From an uncultured delta proteobacterium (GTDB lineage Bacteria > Desulfobacterota > DSM-4660 > Desulfatiglandales > HGW-15), in the NCBI GenBank assembly GCA_963740905.1, contig CAVUFY010000008.1:190444-254443 (forward strand): a stretch of 64,000 nucleotides of DNA. Reading direction: 5' to 3'. The translations under genes were made by a program, and so were the position numbers. Below the pieces are notes generated by a model. The model had not been told where the DNA came from, ran no database searches, and worked only from the letters and a program-made list of their open reading frames with translations. Positions 36,515 to 43,220 of this stretch are shown in pieces; the first letter of the stretch is position 1, and each line of letters opens with the position of its first letter.

Positions 36515-37019
36515 GTTGTCTATGCCTTTCTCTCCGTGATCAAACCCGCCGACGCGGCTTTCCTGCTGCGAACATGGACTTTTTCAGCACCCTGCTAGAT
36601 TAGAAGACACCGCCACAGGGAGAAATAGGGTAAATCCTGTATTTTTTGGTCAACAGACAATGCACTTTTGCACGTGTGAGACGAGATTGTCAAAATGAAA
36701 CCTGCCGCGGTCGTGATGATTCAGTTTCGAGTGGGTCCACCTGTATCAATGAACTAGCCGCGCTCCCGGGGAGGAGTTGAAGAGATCCCTCTCCGGGGGA
36801 CGAGGCGGGTTTTTGTTCCTATATAAACGCCCCCGCAGCGAAGCGCCGGGGTACAAGTGCTCAAGACTTAATCGTTACCCGCAGCGGGCCTCACATGGAT
36901 GACACCCGGATGGTGGGATTCTCCCCCGTTGACTTTGCCTCTGCGAATGGTTATCTAACGAACGATTCTGAATTTTTCGCCAACAAGAACTTAACCACCT
37001 CATGCCTAGGAGGGGAATC

Positions 37020-38075
37020 ATGAGCCAGGAATCGCCTCTCGAGTGCCGGATACTGGAAAGGGTCAAGGAAAGAGATAAAATCGGTGTGTGGGGTTTCGGC
37101 AATGTTTCAAGGGACGTCGTGTTGTCGCTGGTGGATCAGGGACTCGGGAAGGAGATCGTTTTCTACGGAAGACCCAAGGAAAAATATCCCAACAGGGCCG
37201 GGACCTGGATCGAAGACCTGAAAGCCAACTCCATTCATCGTCCTCGCATTTACGGCACCAACCAGACTGATGACATGGCCGGTCTCGACGTGATCTTCAT
37301 CGGCGTGGGCGTTCCGCGCAAAGAGGGCCAAAGCCGGAGGGACCTTCTCGCAGTCAATACGGAGGTGATCGCCGAAGCCTCCTTCGAAATCCGCAGGCTT
37401 TATCAGGGCTGCGGGACCAAGGACTTACCCATCCTCGTTTACATGGGGAATCCTGTGACCACGATGACCTGGGTGGGTTACAAGGCTACAGGATTTCCAC
37501 GGGCAAACATTGTGGGCCAGGCCGGAAACCTGGATGCGAGAAGGATCTGCCATGCCCTATCCAAACTGATCGGTCTCTCAGGCAACGACCTGAGAGGGAT
37601 TGTCTTCGGAGAACACGGCGACTCCATGGTCGCCAGCACCCGGTTTTTCTCTGTAGGAGGGGTGCCTCTTGACGATGTTGTTCGCGCCCAGGGGATCGAC
37701 CCGGCCGTGATCAACCGCGCCATCGAAGACGCGAAAAAAGGCGGAACCCATTTCGTGAACGAAACCGGTCAGAGCGCGTCGGCGGGCCCCGCGAGGGCCG
37801 CATGTGATATGCTGCGCTGTATGATTCTCGGGGAGGCCGAGGTTCAGCCTGTGATCGCTATCTTTGAAAAGGAATACGGTCTCCTGAAAAAAGAGGACGG
37901 TCTCGATTCCATGAGTTTCGGGGTGCCTGCCAAGATTGGGCCCTACGGTGTGGAAAAGATCTACGAACTTCCGGTGGAGGATATCAGGGGCCAGTTGGAG
38001 AGATCCGCCTCCATTATCAAGGAGGACATCAAGGCCGCCGCAGGGATCCTGAAGGAAAAGTACGGCATTACCTAG
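37020..38075 (+). CDS. mdh: Malate dehydrogenase (LDH-like), atypical cofactor site
   Basis: GVPRKEGQSRRDLL (Arg specificity residue), GNPV, LDARR, GEHGDSMV; SD GGAGGGG before ATG 37020. Confidence 0.88.
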   Translation: MSQESPLECRILERVKERDKIGVWGFGNVSRDVVLSLVDQGLGKEIVFYGRPKEKYPNRAGTWIEDLKANSIHRPRIYGTNQTDDMAGLDVIFIGVGVPRKEGQSRRDLLAVNTEVIAEASFEIRRLYQGCGTKDLPILVYMGNPVTTMTWVGYKATGFPRANIVGQAGNLDARRICHALSKLIGLSGNDLRGIVFGEHGDSMVASTRFFSVGGVPLDDVVRAQGIDPAVINRAIEDAKKGGTHFVNETGQSASAGPARAACDMLRCMILGEAEVQPVIAIFEKEYGLLKKEDGLDSMSFGVPAKIGPYGVEKIYELPVEDIRGQLERSASIIKEDIKAAAGILKEKYGIT

Positions 38076-38133: not shown

Positions 38134-39564
38134 TTACTTCTGGCTCTTCTTCGGCAGCAGATGAGTGACGCTGCCGAGGAAAATTTCCGCCACCTCTCCT
38201 ACCGTCTCGGAGAGGGTGGGGTGTGGATGGATGCTAAGTCCTACGTCCGCAGGCAGAGCGCCCATTTCCACGGCCAGCACTCCCTCTGAGATCAACCCTT
38301 CGGCATGGCGTCCTGCGATACCGAACCCCAGAACCCTTTCCGTCTCCCCATCGACGACCATCTTTGTCACTCCCGCAGCGGCGTCTATCGTGGTGGCCCG
38401 GGGTGAAAATTTCCAAGGGTAGCGTTCAATCCTCACAGTTCGCTTTTGCTTGCGCGCCTGTTCTTCGGTCAGCCCACACCACGCAACCTGAGGATCGGTG
38501 AAAACCACGGCAGGGATGGCCCTCGCATCAAAAGCCGACGGCTCTCCCGCTATGACTTCCGCCGCAACCTTTCCCTCCCGAAAGGCCTTGTGCGCAAGCT
38601 GAGGTCCTCCGGCCACATCGCCAATGGCAAAGATCTTCTCATCCTTTGTCCGCTGCTGCTCGTCAACGACCACGAAGCCCTTATCATTCACTTTCACGTT
38701 GGTCTTGTCCAGACCGATACCCTCGGACTTGGGGTCTCTTCCCACGGCGACCAGCACCCGATCAAAGGACTGCTCGGATTTGTCTATGTCCCCCTCAAAC
38801 ATGACCTCCACCCTGTCCGATTGCTCCTTCATGGATTTGACCCGGGTGTTGAAATGAATGGCGTCGAAAAGTTCTTCCAGTCTTTTCGCGAGAGGGGCCA
38901 CAAGATCGGTATCGGCCCCCCGCAACATCCTTTCGCTCCGAACCGCGAGAGAAACGCGGGTTCCCAGGGAGGCGTAAACCGTTCCCATTTCGAGGGCGAT
39001 ATACCCTCCGCCGATGATGAGGAGTGAGTCGGGTATCTCGGGAAGTTCCAGTGCCCCTGCCGAATCCATGATGCGACTTCCCTTCTCAAACTTTGTGCCC
39101 GGGAAAGGAGCGGGGCACGACCCGGTCGCAAGAATGGCATGACGGTACTTGATGTGGCTCACCTCCGAATCATGGAGGCGGACCGTGCCGGAATCTTCGA
39201 ACTCAACCCGGCCTTGTATCAGCTCCACTCCCCTCTTCTTGCTCAGAGTGACCAGCCCATCCGCCAGCTTGTCCACCACCTCATCTTTCCATCTGCGAAT
39301 CTTTTCCGCATCAATTTGCGGTTTGCCAAAAGCCACGCCCATTCTTTCCGAGCGCTGCGCGTCATGGATGAGTTCCGCCAGGGAGAGCAAGGTCTTGGAC
39401 GGAATGCAGCCTCGGAACAGGCATTCACCCCCGGGCCTCGGTGCCATGTCAACCATCGTGACTTCCAGGCCGAGATCCGCCGCTCGGAACGCCGCAGCGT
39501 AGCCTCCCGGCCCGCTTCCGATGACGAGAACCTGTGTCTCTTCGGTAAATTCTCCCATAACCAT
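38134..39564 (-). CDS. lpdA: Dihydrolipoyl dehydrogenase (E3)
   Basis: GSGPGGY, GGECLFRGCIPSK redox disulfide, IHPHPTLSE; start set at ATG 39564 because the track's 5' extension is repeat DNA. Confidence 0.95.
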   Translation of the reverse strand: MVMGEFTEETQVLVIGSGPGGYAAAFRAADLGLEVTMVDMAPRPGGECLFRGCIPSKTLLSLAELIHDAQRSERMGVAFGKPQIDAEKIRRWKDEVVDKLADGLVTLSKKRGVELIQGRVEFEDSGTVRLHDSEVSHIKYRHAILATGSCPAPFPGTKFEKGSRIMDSAGALELPEIPDSLLIIGGGYIALEMGTVYASLGTRVSLAVRSERMLRGADTDLVAPLAKRLEELFDAIHFNTRVKSMKEQSDRVEVMFEGDIDKSEQSFDRVLVAVGRDPKSEGIGLDKTNVKVNDKGFVVVDEQQRTKDEKIFAIGDVAGGPQLAHKAFREGKVAAEVIAGEPSAFDARAIPAVVFTDPQVAWCGLTEEQARKQKRTVRIERYPWKFSPRATTIDAAAGVTKMVVDGETERVLGFGIAGRHAEGLISEGVLAVEMGALPADVGLSIHPHPTLSETVGEVAEIFLGSVTHLLPKKSQK

Positions 39565-39585
39565 TGCCCAAATCCCCCTTTTGAA

Positions 39586-39697
39586 AATCCGAAGCACGAA
39601 TATCGAAATTCGAAGTATCTCCATCACAGTTACGAGTGACGAGTAACAAGTAGATTATAAATGAACTTGTCACTCGTGACTCGTCACTTGTCACTTT
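39586..39697. repeat. Adjacent heptad arrays: CGAAAT-type (about 39586-39616) and family A core (39628-39697)
   Basis: AGTTACGAGTGACGAGTAACAAGTA equals the reverse complement of 3496-3520; TCGTGACTCGTCACTTGTCACTTTC is also present at about 63556-63580. Confidence 0.75.
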
Positions 39698-39769
39698 CCC
39701 TTTGAAAGGAAAACAGCGCCGTCGAATCTGTCCACGTGCACCCAACGATGGTCGTATTCGAGCAACCTG

Positions 39770-41125
39770 TTAGGTCATCATCATGAACAGTTCTTCAGGG
39801 TCCTCGAGGGCTTCCACGATCATCCTCAGGAAGGGAACGGCATCTGCGCCGTCCAGCACCCGGTGATCGATGCACAGCACAAGGGGCATCTTGAGCCTTG
39901 GTTCGATCCGATAGCCCTGCTTCTCGTTTCCTATGACTGCCGGCTGCATGGTGGCCGCTCCCATACCCAGGATGGCCGCCTCCGGATAGTTGATGATGGG
40001 GACGAACTGGCCTCCGCCCATGGGGCCCACGTTCGTGATGGTAAAAGTTCCTCCTTGCAACTCCCCGAGGTTCACTTTTCTCTGTCTTGTCCTCTCGGCC
40101 AGTTCCTTGAGTTCGATGCTCAGATCCAGAATGCTCTTCCGGTCCACGTCTTTGATCACGGGCACAATGAGGCCGTCGTCGGTTGCGACCGCCACCCCTA
40201 CGTGATAGTAATGTTTTTCGATGATTTCCCCGGCTTGTGGATCGATGCTCGAGTTGAATCGAGGAAAGGCCTTGAGTGCCGTTGCCGCTGCTTTCAAAGC
40301 AAATACGGTATGGGTCAGCTTGCCGCCCTTGGCCTCGATCTCTTCTTTGTGCTTGCGGCGGAAAGCTTCCAGCTTGCTCATGTCCGCCACATCCTGGTTG
40401 TTCACGTGGGGAATTTGCGACCACGCCACAGCCATTTGCCTTGCCGTGGATTTCCGGATGGAACGCAGGGGCACCCGCTCTATCGGGCCCCATCTGGAAA
40501 AGTCGGGAAGCTTGGGTGCCGGCGCCGCCAGCGGTCTTTCTTCTTTTGGCTTTTCTTCAGGTTTCTTTTCCGCTTTTTCTTCCCGCCTTTCTTCGGGCTT
40601 TTCTTTTCCCTCTGCAAAAGCTCTCACATCCTCTGCGGTGACCAAACCCTTCGGCCCCGAGGGTCTGACTCGTCTCAATTCCACACCCAGTTCCCGGGCC
40701 AGACGACGGGTAGCGGGCGATGCAGGAACCGGCCCTTCCCGGGGTTTCTCCGTCGGAAGCTCTTCCTCGCGGCCCTTTTCCTCCTCTTTCTCTTTCGGAG
40801 GTTTTTTCTCCGGCTTTCCTTCGGGAGGCTTTTCCTCTTTCTCCTCTACCCTTTCTTCAGAAGGCTTTCCAGTCTCGGCTGCCTCCTCTCCCACGCTGAA
40901 GGTCATCATCACGTCACCTACATTCACCGTGTCACCCGGTTTGATGCGGATCTCTTTCACCACCCCTGTATAGGGCGAGGGGACTTCCACCGCCGCTTTG
41001 TCCGTTTCCACCTCCAGGATGATGTCTCCTTCATTGACCTTGTCTCCTTCAGATACCCGGACAGACAGGATCTCTCCCTCATGAATGCCCTCTCCCAGGT
41101 CCGGCAGCTTGAATTCTTTAGGCAT
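39770..41125 (-). CDS. pdhC: 2-oxoacid dehydrogenase E2 (dihydrolipoamide acyltransferase), one lipoyl domain
   Basis: ETDKAAVEVPSP lipoyl Lys, PASPATRRLARELGV E3-binding domain, DHRVLDGAD. Confidence 0.93.
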   Translation of the reverse strand: MPKEFKLPDLGEGIHEGEILSVRVSEGDKVNEGDIILEVETDKAAVEVPSPYTGVVKEIRIKPGDTVNVGDVMMTFSVGEEAAETGKPSEERVEEKEEKPPEGKPEKKPPKEKEEEKGREEELPTEKPREGPVPASPATRRLARELGVELRRVRPSGPKGLVTAEDVRAFAEGKEKPEERREEKAEKKPEEKPKEERPLAAPAPKLPDFSRWGPIERVPLRSIRKSTARQMAVAWSQIPHVNNQDVADMSKLEAFRRKHKEEIEAKGGKLTHTVFALKAAATALKAFPRFNSSIDPQAGEIIEKHYYHVGVAVATDDGLIVPVIKDVDRKSILDLSIELKELAERTRQRKVNLGELQGGTFTITNVGPMGGGQFVPIINYPEAAILGMGAATMQPAVIGNEKQGYRIEPRLKMPLVLCIDHRVLDGADAVPFLRMIVEALEDPEELFMMMT

Positions 41126-41140
41126 GACTCGTTCCTCCCC

Positions 41141-42121
41141 TCATATGCTCAATGCTTTTCTGGATGCTTTGAGTATGCGCTCGGCGCCCGGCAGGTACGC
41201 CTTTTCCTTGCTGAACAACGGGATGACGACGTCAAACCCCGTCACCCGGGCAATGGGAGCTTCCAGGTAGAAAAAGGCCTTTTCCACGAGACGGGAAATG
41301 ATCTCCCCGGCAGGACCAAAGCTCCGGGGCGCTTCGTGGACAATCACCGCCCTCCCCGTCTTCTTCACAGACTCCACGAGCAAGGCGTCATCCAGCGGTG
41401 AGATGGTCATCAGGTCGATCACCTCAGCCTGAACTCCATCCTTCTCGTTGAGTGCTACGGCCGCCTCCAGGGTGGGACGCATCATGGCCCCGTAAGAAAT
41501 CATGGTCAAATCTTTTCCTTCTTGCACTATCCGAGGTTTGCCCAGCGGCAACGTTTCCTCTTCTTCCGGCACTTCTTCGCGAAAAGCGCGGTAGAGAGCC
41601 TTCGCTTCATAGAAGATGACCGGGTCCGGATCGCGGATGGCGCTGACAAGCAGGGCCCTGGCATTCCGAGGGCTTGAGGGAATGACCATCTTGAGGCCTG
41701 GAATATGAGCCCAGAAAGCTTCCCTGCTCTCGGAGTGATGTTCGAGGGCTCGCACCCCTCCCCCGTAAGGAGCCCGCAGCACCATGGGCACCGTCAGCCG
41801 CCCCTGGGTCCGCCAGCGTATCCTTGACGCATGGCATTCGATCTGATGAAAAGCGAGATAACTGAAACCGGAAAACTGCATTTCGCACACCGGCTTGAGC
41901 CCGTATATCGCCATGCCGATGGACATGCCGGCGATGCCCGATTCCGCCAGAGGCGTGTCGAGCGCCCTGTCCTCGCCGAACTCGTCGATGAGGCCGTCCG
42001 TGACACGGAAAACCCCTCCGTCCCTGCCCACGTCCTCTCCCAAGACGATCACGCTGTCGTCCTTTTTCATTTCCTGGCGGAGGGCCAGGTTCAATGCCTG
42101 CACCATCGTCATCTTAGCCAT
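41141..42121 (-). CDS. pdhB: Pyruvate/2-oxoacid dehydrogenase E1 beta
   Basis: GEDVGRDGGVFRVT, DTPLAESGI, EHHSES, VIVHEAP. Confidence 0.93.
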   Translation of the reverse strand: MAKMTMVQALNLALRQEMKKDDSVIVLGEDVGRDGGVFRVTDGLIDEFGEDRALDTPLAESGIAGMSIGMAIYGLKPVCEMQFSGFSYLAFHQIECHASRIRWRTQGRLTVPMVLRAPYGGGVRALEHHSESREAFWAHIPGLKMVIPSSPRNARALLVSAIRDPDPVIFYEAKALYRAFREEVPEEEETLPLGKPRIVQEGKDLTMISYGAMMRPTLEAAVALNEKDGVQAEVIDLMTISPLDDALLVESVKKTGRAVIVHEAPRSFGPAGEIISRLVEKAFFYLEAPIARVTGFDVVIPLFSKEKAYLPGAERILKASRKALSI

Positions 42122-43220
42122 GGTTCTTCTCCTTCCCGGTCCCGGACATTTCTGCTTTTGCCTCCTCCCTCTGTTCCGCCAAATATGGGGGCATGTCCGC
42201 ATAAACGTGCTCGAACATCTGGAGCGGGTCGTTGTATTTCTTCATCAGTTCCTCCGCCCGGTCTACTGCGCCTTGAATTTCATCCTTGACCTCCGATTCC
42301 ACCTCCTCGACCTTTTCGTCCGAGAGAAGTCCTTTGTCCTTCAGATATTTCTGAAACCTGGTGATGGGATCTTTTTTCCTCCACCCTTCCACTTCCTCGT
42401 CCTTGCGATAGCGCTTCGGGTCATCAGCGGTGGTGTGCATCATCATCCGGTAGGTTTCGCATTCAATCATCGTGGGCCCCTCCCCTGCCCGTGCTCTATC
42501 TACCGCCTCTTCTGCCGCAGCGTAAACTGCCAGCACATCATTCCCGTCCACCTGTATGCCCGGCATCCCGTAAGCGAGAGCTTTCTGGGCGAGAGTCTTC
42601 GAACGAGTCTGTTTGGACCTGGGAACCGAGATGGCCCACTGGTTGTTCTGGCATACAAAAATAACGGGGACCTGAAAAACTCCTGCGAAGTTCATACCTT
42701 CGTGAAAGTCCCCCTCCGAGGTGCCCCCATCCCCGAAAAAGGTCATGGCCACGTCCTTCTTCTTCCGATACTTGATTCCCCAGGCGATGCCGACGGCATG
42801 AAGGACTTGGGAGCCAACAGGGACAGAATTAGGAAGATCATTCCCCTCTTCCAGCAAAAGAGCCGCCTCGTTGTACCCTCCGAAACTGAGAATAACGGAT
42901 TCCATGGGCGCGCCCCGGTAGATCTGGGCCGCTGTCTCGCGGAATGAAGGGACCATGAAGTCGGATGGCTTCAGAACCGCAGCCGCGCCCAGTTGAGAAG
43001 CCTCCTGGCCTGAGGTGGGGGCAAAAGTCCCGATTCGACCCTGCCTCTGAAGGCTGAGAACCCTTTCGTCAAACCTTCGTCCCAAGATCATGGCCTTGTG
43101 AAGTTTCAGCAGAAGCTCATCGGGAATCCGGGGTTCAAGTTCTTCATCGAGTTGACCTTTGTCATCAAGGATGGAAAGGTAATCTACCTGGTAGGGAAGA
43201 TCCACTTTGCTTCTTGGCAT
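42114..43220 (-). CDS. pdhA: Pyruvate/2-oxoacid dehydrogenase E1 alpha
   Basis: LQRQGRIGTF, GDGGTSEGDFHEGMNFA...QNNQWAIS TPP motif, HTTADDP..YR. Confidence 0.93.
   Translation of the reverse strand: MPRSKVDLPYQVDYLSILDDKGQLDEELEPRIPDELLLKLHKAMILGRRFDERVLSLQRQGRIGTFAPTSGQEASQLGAAAVLKPSDFMVPSFRETAAQIYRGAPMESVILSFGGYNEAALLLEEGNDLPNSVPVGSQVLHAVGIAWGIKYRKKKDVAMTFFGDGGTSEGDFHEGMNFAGVFQVPVIFVCQNNQWAISVPRSKQTRSKTLAQKALAYGMPGIQVDGNDVLAVYAAAEEAVDRARAGEGPTMIECETYRMMMHTTADDPKRYRKDEEVEGWRKKDPITRFQKYLKDKGLLSDEKVEEVESEVKDEIQGAVDRAEELMKKYNDPLQMFEHVYADMPPYLAEQREEAKAEMSGTGKEKNHG

Follow-up and report, generated by a model that had tools for sequence, protein, structure and literature searches.

Textbook 2-oxoacid dehydrogenase complexes are NAD+-linked enzymes and, to our knowledge, the NADP-linked ones are all E. 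coli enzymes modified by engineering or by laboratory evolution. Could such a complex have adopted NADP in nature? The question is raised by a 64,000-nucleotide stretch of DNA from an uncultured delta proteobacterium (positions 190,444 to 254,443 of contig CAVUFY010000008.1, hereafter the window), in which four co-oriented minus-strand genes encode the E1alpha, E1beta, E2 and E3 components of a pyruvate dehydrogenase (PDH)-type complex. The fourth gene, lpd, specifies the dihydrolipoyl dehydrogenase (E3, or Lpd), and a first-pass annotation of the sequence had remarked that its cofactor site resembles that of glutathione reductase (GR), an NADPH-dependent enzyme. We have followed this remark by computational analysis of the protein, its relatives and its genomic surroundings. 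Because the fingerprint residues, the phylogeny and the published mutagenesis of E. coli Lpd agree, we consider that the locus probably records a natural, lineage-wide switch of a PDH-type complex from NAD to NADP, with an NADP(H)-preferring E3 and, as a consequence, a complex predicted to produce NADPH.

The E3 and its cofactor-site fingerprint

The protein (gene call P0005) starts with MVMGEF at position 39564, and the minus-strand translation of window positions 38134-39627 contains LLIIGGGYIALEMGTVYASLGTRVSLAVRSERMLRGADTD. It passes the NCBIfam Lpd equivalog TIGR01350 with 460.7 bits for a cut-off of 408.8, and a family scan placed it under every cut-off of the remaining flavoprotein disulfide reductase families. 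It aligns with E. coli Lpd (4JDR) over the full length with about 42% identity (E = 3e-120) and contains the FAD motif GSGPGG, the redox disulfide CLFRGC (C48/C53) and the His-Glu dyad HPHPTLSE; the FAD, CxxxxC and HxxxxE motifs are invariant in alignment A1. When a ligand-free AlphaFold2 (AF2) model, with a mean predicted local distance difference test score (pLDDT) of 73, was compared with the PDB by Foldseek, the top 50 matches were all Lpds, with template modelling (TM) scores of 0.78-0.83 (about 0.82). By score, motifs and fold, the gene product is a genuine dihydrolipoyl dehydrogenase. A misannotated GR, mercuric reductase (MerA) or mycothione reductase was ruled out, as the Lpd model is the sole equivalog passed and the gene is operonic with those of E1 and E2. 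The GR models NF004776, TIGR01421 and TIGR01424 gave 284, 244 and 246 bits for cut-offs of 480, 556 and 606, and the mycothione reductase models gave 206-236 bits for cut-offs of 501-636.

The fold, the FAD motif, the CxxxxC motif, the His-Glu dyad, the dimerisation domain and a gene adjoining that of an E2 with a peripheral-subunit-binding domain are all shared with NAD-dependent E3s (EC 1.8.1.4) such as E. coli LpdA. The difference lies in the NAD(P)-binding beta-alpha-beta unit, GGGYIA...SLAVRSERMLRG, which had been placed at 38915-39013 and was found at 38917-39012; residues 185-216 read GGGYIALEMGTVYASLGTRVSLAVRSERMLRG. The HMMER alignment of the E3 with 4JDR, which contains no gaps, pairs GGGYIA with GGGIIG and SLAVRSERMLRGAD with DVVEMFDQVIPAAD. 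From E. coli Lpd to the E3, this corresponds to the changes G187A, E205V, M206R, F207S, D208E and P212R, with G191 unchanged. Hence the Glu at the strand end of LpdA is replaced by Val (V208), the following Met by Arg (R209), the Pro at +7 by Arg (R215) and GxGxxG by GxGxxA (A190), as the first-pass annotation had read them, and the codons of these four residues were checked by hand against the window DNA. The spacing, 18 residues from Ala to Val and 7 from Val to the second Arg, is the same as that of A179, V197 and R204 in E. coli GR. The E3 thus displays the GR-type pattern of an NADPH site (GxGxxA, a non-acidic strand end and Arg at +1 and +7) and has V208 and GGGYIA where a canonical NAD+-dependent E3 has a strand-end Glu and GxGxxG. 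In the AF2 model, residues 180-185 and 203-208 form strands and residues 188-199 a helix, so that beta-2 ends with V208, at the position of the acidic residue in NAD-dependent Rossmann domains.

In GR structures two Arg bind the 2'-phosphate of NADPH, and in Lpd the Glu binds the ribose hydroxyls of NAD+. By analogy with the homologous GR pocket and with engineered Lpd pockets, loss of the strand-end Glu, now V208, would abolish hydrogen bonding to the adenosine-ribose 2'/3'-OH together with a charge repelling the 2'-phosphate, while R209 and R215 would provide two guanidinium groups able to clamp the 2'-phosphate of NADP(H), and A190 would correspond to the glycine-motif variant of NADPH-dependent GR. 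The E3 would dock on the E2 of a PDH-type complex with a heterotetrameric E1, its nicotinamide-cofactor pocket having been converted from NAD type to NADP type, and the complex would convert a 2-oxoacid, most likely pyruvate, to acyl-CoA and CO2 with reduction of NADP+ to NADPH. What the complex does in the cell, which 2-oxoacid it oxidises and which cofactor it prefers are all predictions of this kind.

The positions concerned are those that protein engineers have exchanged to swap cofactor specificity, as the first-pass annotation had stated; they match the sites of two studies listed in a review. The best engineered NADP-specific E. coli Lpd (Bocanegra et al. 1993, via the review) carries E205V/M206R/F207K/D208H/P212R, and the reverse swap in E. 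coli GR (Scrutton et al. 1990, via the review) was A179G/A183G/V197E/R198M/K199F/H200D/R204P. Three of the five changes of the engineered Lpd, which also exists with or without G187A and G191A, occur exactly in this E3, together with G187A. The E3 differs from the engineered enzyme in being natural and clade-wide, in having Ser (not Lys) for F207 and Glu (not His) for D208, and in its unchanged G191. NADP+ activity is undetectable in wild-type E. coli Lpd, and E205G or E205A alone is enough to confer it, the NAD+ kcat/Km falling from 830 to 5-13 s-1 mM-1 (PMC8406311). The five-fold variant is described as having an approximately 100-fold preference for NADP+ and as still working in the complex (PMC8406311, citing that study). 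The closest functional analogue of the system described here is the engineered NADP-dependent E. coli PDH complex.

A 28-residue loop of the E3 was also searched against all PDB sequences. The single match was to mycothione reductase 8QCJ (GRSQRLLR; SALGSRVSIIGRSQRLLRHLD), which uses NADPH; the ~40 Lpd structures were all absent from the result. At such a query length the E-value of 0.84 carries no information, and the weight of this result lies in the identity of the protein picked. The GRSQRLLR of this enzyme is the sequence most similar to the E3 loop AVRSERMLR. The E3 shares GxGxxA, a hydrophobic strand end and the R-x5-R spacing with the NADPH sites of glutathione and mycothione reductases, but it falls outside those families, and its substrate-side features and operon context are those of an E3.

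Conservation and phylogeny of the fingerprint

The homologue search and the inspection of gene context that the first-pass annotation had called for showed that, of more than 150 orthologues (59-100% identity), nearly all retain the fingerprint, and that in most of the gene contexts that were readable the E3 gene belongs to an intact E1alpha-E1beta-E2-E3 operon or lies directly 3' of the E2 gene. Among the nearest relatives, 120 clusters built at 90% identity (69-100% identical to the E3), AVR[S/G][D/E]RLLRGAD is kept in 119; in the exception, P0099, the strand ends with Asp, and H-R or L-R is found in a few. These clusters are metagenome-assembled genomes (MAGs) labelled Desulfatiglandales, Desulfobacteraceae, Thermodesulfobacteriota or Deltaproteobacteria. 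An orthologue is carried by 32 of 209 sampled species-representative genomes of the same class, corresponding to 21 of 89 genera and two families. All 30 loci returned from the class genomes read [A/S]...[V/L][R or H-R]...R, and the fingerprint is also kept in seven GTDB loci. The occurrence of identical residues in more than 150 independent sequences rules out an assembly or sequencing artefact. The in-frame stops listed for the orthologues simply terminate the genes, with one exception: L076 appears to be frameshifted. RNA evidence for the E3 sequence was sought as well, and the sequence was present in DNA metagenome runs alone (wetland, marsh, soil and freshwater sediment).

The wider Lpd family was sampled through 50%-identity clusters, of which 147 representatives were aligned. 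Asp or Glu ends the strand in 132 of them (~90%) and Pro occupies +7 in 95, and a non-acidic strand end combined with Arg at +1 and +7 was found in three representatives, one being a fragment of the same clade. In printed alignments the solved Lpds of E. coli, Neisseria (P64k) and P. putida (LpdVal) all read V-V-E, as had been stated for ordinary Lpds. With these solved Lpds and the acidic majority of the representatives, the first-pass annotation's concern about a motif widespread in NAD-specific E3s is not borne out. Nonetheless, about 10% of the cluster representatives also have no acidic residue, which would suit an E3 that is still NAD-specific and whose altered loop reflects neutral or structural lineage variation. 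We regard this explanation as very improbable, since removal of E205 alone cuts the NAD+ efficiency of E. coli Lpd 65-150-fold (PMC8406311), and since the four coordinated changes match the pattern of NADPH enzymes exactly and are clade-fixed, with canonical sister operons.

The relationship with these sister operons was examined in a maximum-likelihood tree of 87 sequences. The NADP-type E3s are monophyletic (Shimodaira-Hasegawa-like approximate likelihood ratio test, SH-aLRT, 99), and the canonical fingerprint is found in their sister, P0125 (62% identity), as well as in the outgroups that follow. GTDB species representatives show a sharp boundary, loci of at least 62% identity having the new fingerprint and those of at most 61% LVEMTDRLMP; the latter loci are from Desulfobacterales, Desulfococcaceae and Desulfobacteraceae MAGs. 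NADP-type and canonical sister loci share the E1alpha-E1beta-E2-E3 operon, and their E1 and E2 are orthologous. This looks like one orthologous complex in which the E3 pocket was switched in a single event and then retained. Sixteen positions are clade-fixed and different in the nearest canonical relatives, and five of them (A190, A207, V208, R209 and R215) lie inside the 31-residue fingerprint, a clustering with a hypergeometric P of 0.002, indicating that the cofactor site was the main target of change. Every member of the clade (100%) has Arg at the R215 position, and no sister or canonical sequence in the comparison does. Clade-fixed substitutions outside the fingerprint include Glu before the first redox Cys (residue 47, window ~39421-39426; GGECL versus the usual GGVCL/GGTCL), PWKF in place of PWAA (residues 385-386, window ~38407-38412), and E-G for G-E in the conserved helix preceding the C-terminal His-Glu dyad (residues 422-423, window ~38296-38301).

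Other Lpd lineages also display unusual cofactor sites. P0174, P0237, P0150 and P0181 pass the equivalog at ~500 bits and have the NADP-like loops SYRGERLLR, GRPPAGLR, QRSEKILS and HRSPTILN, respectively. With at least four other lineages bearing non-acidic, Arg-containing loops, switching from NAD to NADP may be recurrent and under-appreciated in E3s, and NADP-like loops are not unique to this clade. Metagenome contigs scanned with P0174 returned relatives only at 43% identity or below. Finally, four close Lpd relatives (P0132, P0144, P0173 and P0211) have a degenerate NAD-domain motif (VGDDYIA, VSDDCRG, GGSHTA and GGDGPG) with T-P where the strand-end Glu would stand; these proteins may have lost the ability to bind nicotinamide cofactors. 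P0132 scores 407 bits with TIGR01350, just under the cut-off.

Strength of the predicted NADP preference

Since removal of the Glu by itself already opens E. coli Lpd to NADP+, the E3 could also be dual-specific, the lost Glu relaxing discrimination so that NAD+ and NADP+ are reduced at comparable rates. The E205G and E205A single mutants behave in this way, with NADP/NAD efficiency ratios of merely 0.6-1.9 (PMC8406311), and the loop of the E3 does not reproduce the K199/H200 pair of GR and retains the acidic E211. We find dual specificity unlikely, as both Arg (+1 and +7) are present and, together with E205V, led to the 100-fold NADP preference of the engineered enzyme. Throughout the clade, moreover, both Arg hardly vary, as would be expected if phosphate binding were under selection and not if discrimination had merely relaxed.

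Preference for NADP(H) is therefore the reading that we retain as probable, and several points weigh against it. The match to GR is incomplete, for A183 and the basic pair K199/H200 of GR correspond to G194, S210 and E211 in the E3, and the acidic E211 would lie near the phosphate site. Human GR also has Asp at the position equivalent to E211. The AF2 model is of moderate confidence and contains no ligand. Sequence fingerprints sometimes mispredict cofactor preference. High cellular NADPH/NADP ratios would tend to inhibit an NADP-linked E3. In addition, the genome contains two intact zwf genes and thus has no obvious need for an extra NADPH source; that the complex is the sole NADPH source is not supported for the same reason, despite the fact that the PntB transhydrogenase was not found in the genome. 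Lastly, neither E1beta nor E2 reaches its PDH equivalog cut-off, which makes pyruvate a tentative substrate.

As to precedents, in a full-text literature search of incomplete coverage, only engineering and adaptive-evolution work was found, and no 2-oxoacid dehydrogenase complex that is NADP-linked in nature was described. NADP(H)-using lipoamide dehydrogenases were reportedly purified from strictly anaerobic glycine-utilising bacteria by the Andreesen laboratory in 1989-1990; these enzymes are said to serve the glycine decarboxylase system, one of them being atypically small and thioredoxin-reductase-like. We know of no sequence-level link between them and the GR-type fingerprint, nor of any NADP-linked 2-oxoacid dehydrogenase complex described in that work.

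Operon, substrate and genome context

The features of the locus are collected in Table 1.

Table 1. Genes and sequence elements of the lpd locus (window positions)
Feature	Coordinates	Strand	Basis or equivalent residues
Malate dehydrogenase, lactate dehydrogenase (LDH)-like, tail-to-tail with lpd	37002..38075	plus	Alignment to Chlorobium malate dehydrogenase 1GV1
lpd (E3 dihydrolipoyl dehydrogenase), 476 aa	38134..39564	minus	TIGR01350 and E. coli Lpd match
NAD(P)-binding beta-alpha-beta fingerprint, residues 185-216, GGGYIA(190)...SLAV(208)R(209)SERMLR(215)G	38917..39012	minus	Translation, E. coli Lpd alignment, AF2
Codon R215 (cgg)	38920..38922	minus	E. coli Lpd P212, GR R204
Codons V208 (38941-38943, gtt) and R209 (38938-38940, cgg)	38938..38943	minus	E. 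coli Lpd E205/M206, E. coli GR V197/R198
Codon A190	38995-38997	minus	E. coli Lpd G187, GR A179
E2-E3 spacer, 205 nt, long inverted repeat (GTGAC-heptad element)	39565..39769	minus	Sequence, promoter/terminator scan
E2	39770..41125	minus	Pfam Biotin_lipoyl, E3_binding, 2-oxoacid_dh
E1 beta, 326 aa	41141..42121	minus	Pfam Transket_pyr and Transketolase_C
E1 alpha (thiamine diphosphate-dependent 2-oxoacid decarboxylase subunit), 368 aa from MPRSKV	42114..43220	minus	TIGR03181, Pfam E1_dh

The assignment of the gene to the E3 of a PDH-type operon, already made in the first-pass annotation, agrees with the scores of E1alpha, which passes TIGR03181 (PDH_E1_alph_x) with 466.6 bits for a cut-off of 411.35 and has as its best solved relative the PDH E1alpha of G. 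stearothermophilus (1W85, 311 bits), the branched-chain enzymes reaching 231 and 215 bits. E1beta obtains 301 bits with NF006667 (PDH E1 beta), slightly below the cut-off of 321, and the best NCBIfam match of E2 is the PDH acetyltransferase TIGR01348, with 418 bits, under the cut-off of 552. The E1alpha stop and the E1beta start overlap by 8 nt. In the product of the E2 gene, directly upstream of lpd, the catalytic domain is accompanied by a single lipoyl domain and by one for E3 binding. All four proteins have intact catalytic signatures, among them the thiamine-diphosphate motif GDG...NN of E1alpha and the ETDKA and DHRVLDG motifs of E2. The arrangement of the E2 and E3 genes is kept in orthologous loci, with a spacer of 11 to 242 nt across the orthologous operons. 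In the window, the inverted repeat of the spacer is built of GTGAC(A/G)AG units (AAGTGACAAGTGACGAGTCACGAGTGACAAG...CTTGTTACTCGTCACTCGTAAC), and no terminator-like site was found when the coding strand of the spacer was scanned for terminators.

From these sequence comparisons, the complex would be of the PDH type with a heterotetrameric E1 (Gram-positive type), and pyruvate is its most likely substrate. This substrate assignment is tentative, because E1beta and E2 have the expected domains but score under their PDH equivalog cut-offs. Heterotetrameric E1 families also include branched-chain 2-oxoacid and acetoin enzymes, and the genome has a PFOR-like (pyruvate:ferredoxin oxidoreductase) gene for pyruvate oxidation as well, so that the complex could be a branched-chain 2-oxoacid or acetoin dehydrogenase instead of a PDH, independently of its cofactor. 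We think this somewhat unlikely: E1alpha passes its PDH equivalog and is clearly nearer to the Geobacillus PDH E1alpha than to the branched-chain enzymes, and the operon stands among tricarboxylic acid (TCA)-cycle genes (mdh, sdhAB and korAB), not among genes of branched-chain or acetoin catabolism.

One orthologous locus bears on the direction in which the E3 may work. In L009 (7081-9431 of CP070840.1, a complete MAG chromosome), an intact NADP-type E3 gene follows a 199-aa E2 catalytic-domain remnant and thiolase genes, and no E1 genes were found within 8 kb of it. This E3 seems to have outlived the decay of its operon, which indicates that the E3 can persist without the decarboxylase and hints at an additional role. 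An NADP(H)-linked E3 might work mainly in reverse, NADPH reducing the lipoyl groups of E2 for a thiol antioxidant or reductive system like the mycobacterial Lpd-DlaT-AhpD-AhpC, and NADPH is indeed the usual reductant of the disulfide reductases of this superfamily. As a general explanation of the clade, we consider this improbable, since in most readable contexts the E3 gene is in an intact E1alpha-E1beta-E2-E3 operon or directly 3' of E2, the catalytic motifs of E1 and E2 are intact, and the window has no gene for an AhpD or peroxiredoxin partner next to the operon.

Around the operon, the window contains genes for the LDH-like malate dehydrogenase (MDH), sdhAB, a GltD-like iron-sulfur flavoprotein and a 2-oxoacid:acceptor oxidoreductase (korAB). 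The MDH has no NAD-selecting Asp, since it reads VFYGRP, with a one-residue insertion, against LLD in the Chlorobium MDH 1GV1, and its glycine motif is GFGNVS; it is possibly an NADP-type enzyme. Both the MDH motif and the adjacency of the gene to the operon are kept in L012, an 80%-identical orthologous locus. A plausible role of the complex is either the supply of NADPH or a coupling to the neighbouring genes for fumarate reductase and the candidate NADP-type MDH.

The same genome encodes two other proteins that pass the Lpd equivalog, both NAD-type (VTVVEMMP and VIILELLP), and two further E3 relatives that are other disulfide reductases. The best-scoring paralogue (L001, G000 C4:379848-381236; 550 bits) is NAD-type, adjoins genes for a fused tripartite ATP-independent periplasmic (TRAP) transporter and a glutaredoxin-like protein, and lies outside any 2-oxoacid dehydrogenase or glycine-cleavage operon. 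A second E1alpha-E1beta-E2-E3 cluster (L002, G000 C16:107210-111961) has the NAD-type E3 with VIILELLP and, divergently upstream, the lipoyl synthase gene lipA, whose presence in the genome indicates that the complex of the window can be lipoylated. In this second cluster, E1beta is in three pieces and E2 is frameshifted past the E3-binding domain. Likewise, the PFOR-like gene (G000 C9:37566-41061) is in two pieces with an in-frame TGA and a third zwf (G000 C11:135585-136914) is split; these broken genes are either pseudogenes or assembly indel errors.

Putting the E3 and its neighbourhood together, we propose, with doubts that slightly outweigh our confidence, that a whole clade of anaerobic Desulfobacterota, represented among wetland and sediment MAGs, runs a natural NADP+-reducing PDH complex, the first natural lipoate-dependent complex of the NADPH-producing kind, by means of the three substitutions that engineers introduced in 1993. 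This complex may be wired to the neighbouring NADP-type MDH and a soluble fumarate reductase, in which case pyruvate oxidation and a reductive C4 branch would share one NADP(H) pool. Should the E3 be NAD-specific instead, the clade would make a useful counter-example for cofactor prediction from fingerprints. If the proposal is true, nature reached the same solution as rational design, and the orthologous NAD-type sister operons would allow a clean pairwise comparison for work on the evolution of cofactor specificity. A natural NADP-type E3 matched to its own E1 and E2 would also be a ready-made part for NADPH regeneration from pyruvate. For this widespread group of anaerobes of sediments and wetlands, reconstructions of carbon and redox flux would change, as pyruvate oxidation would yield NADPH and not NADH or reduced ferredoxin.

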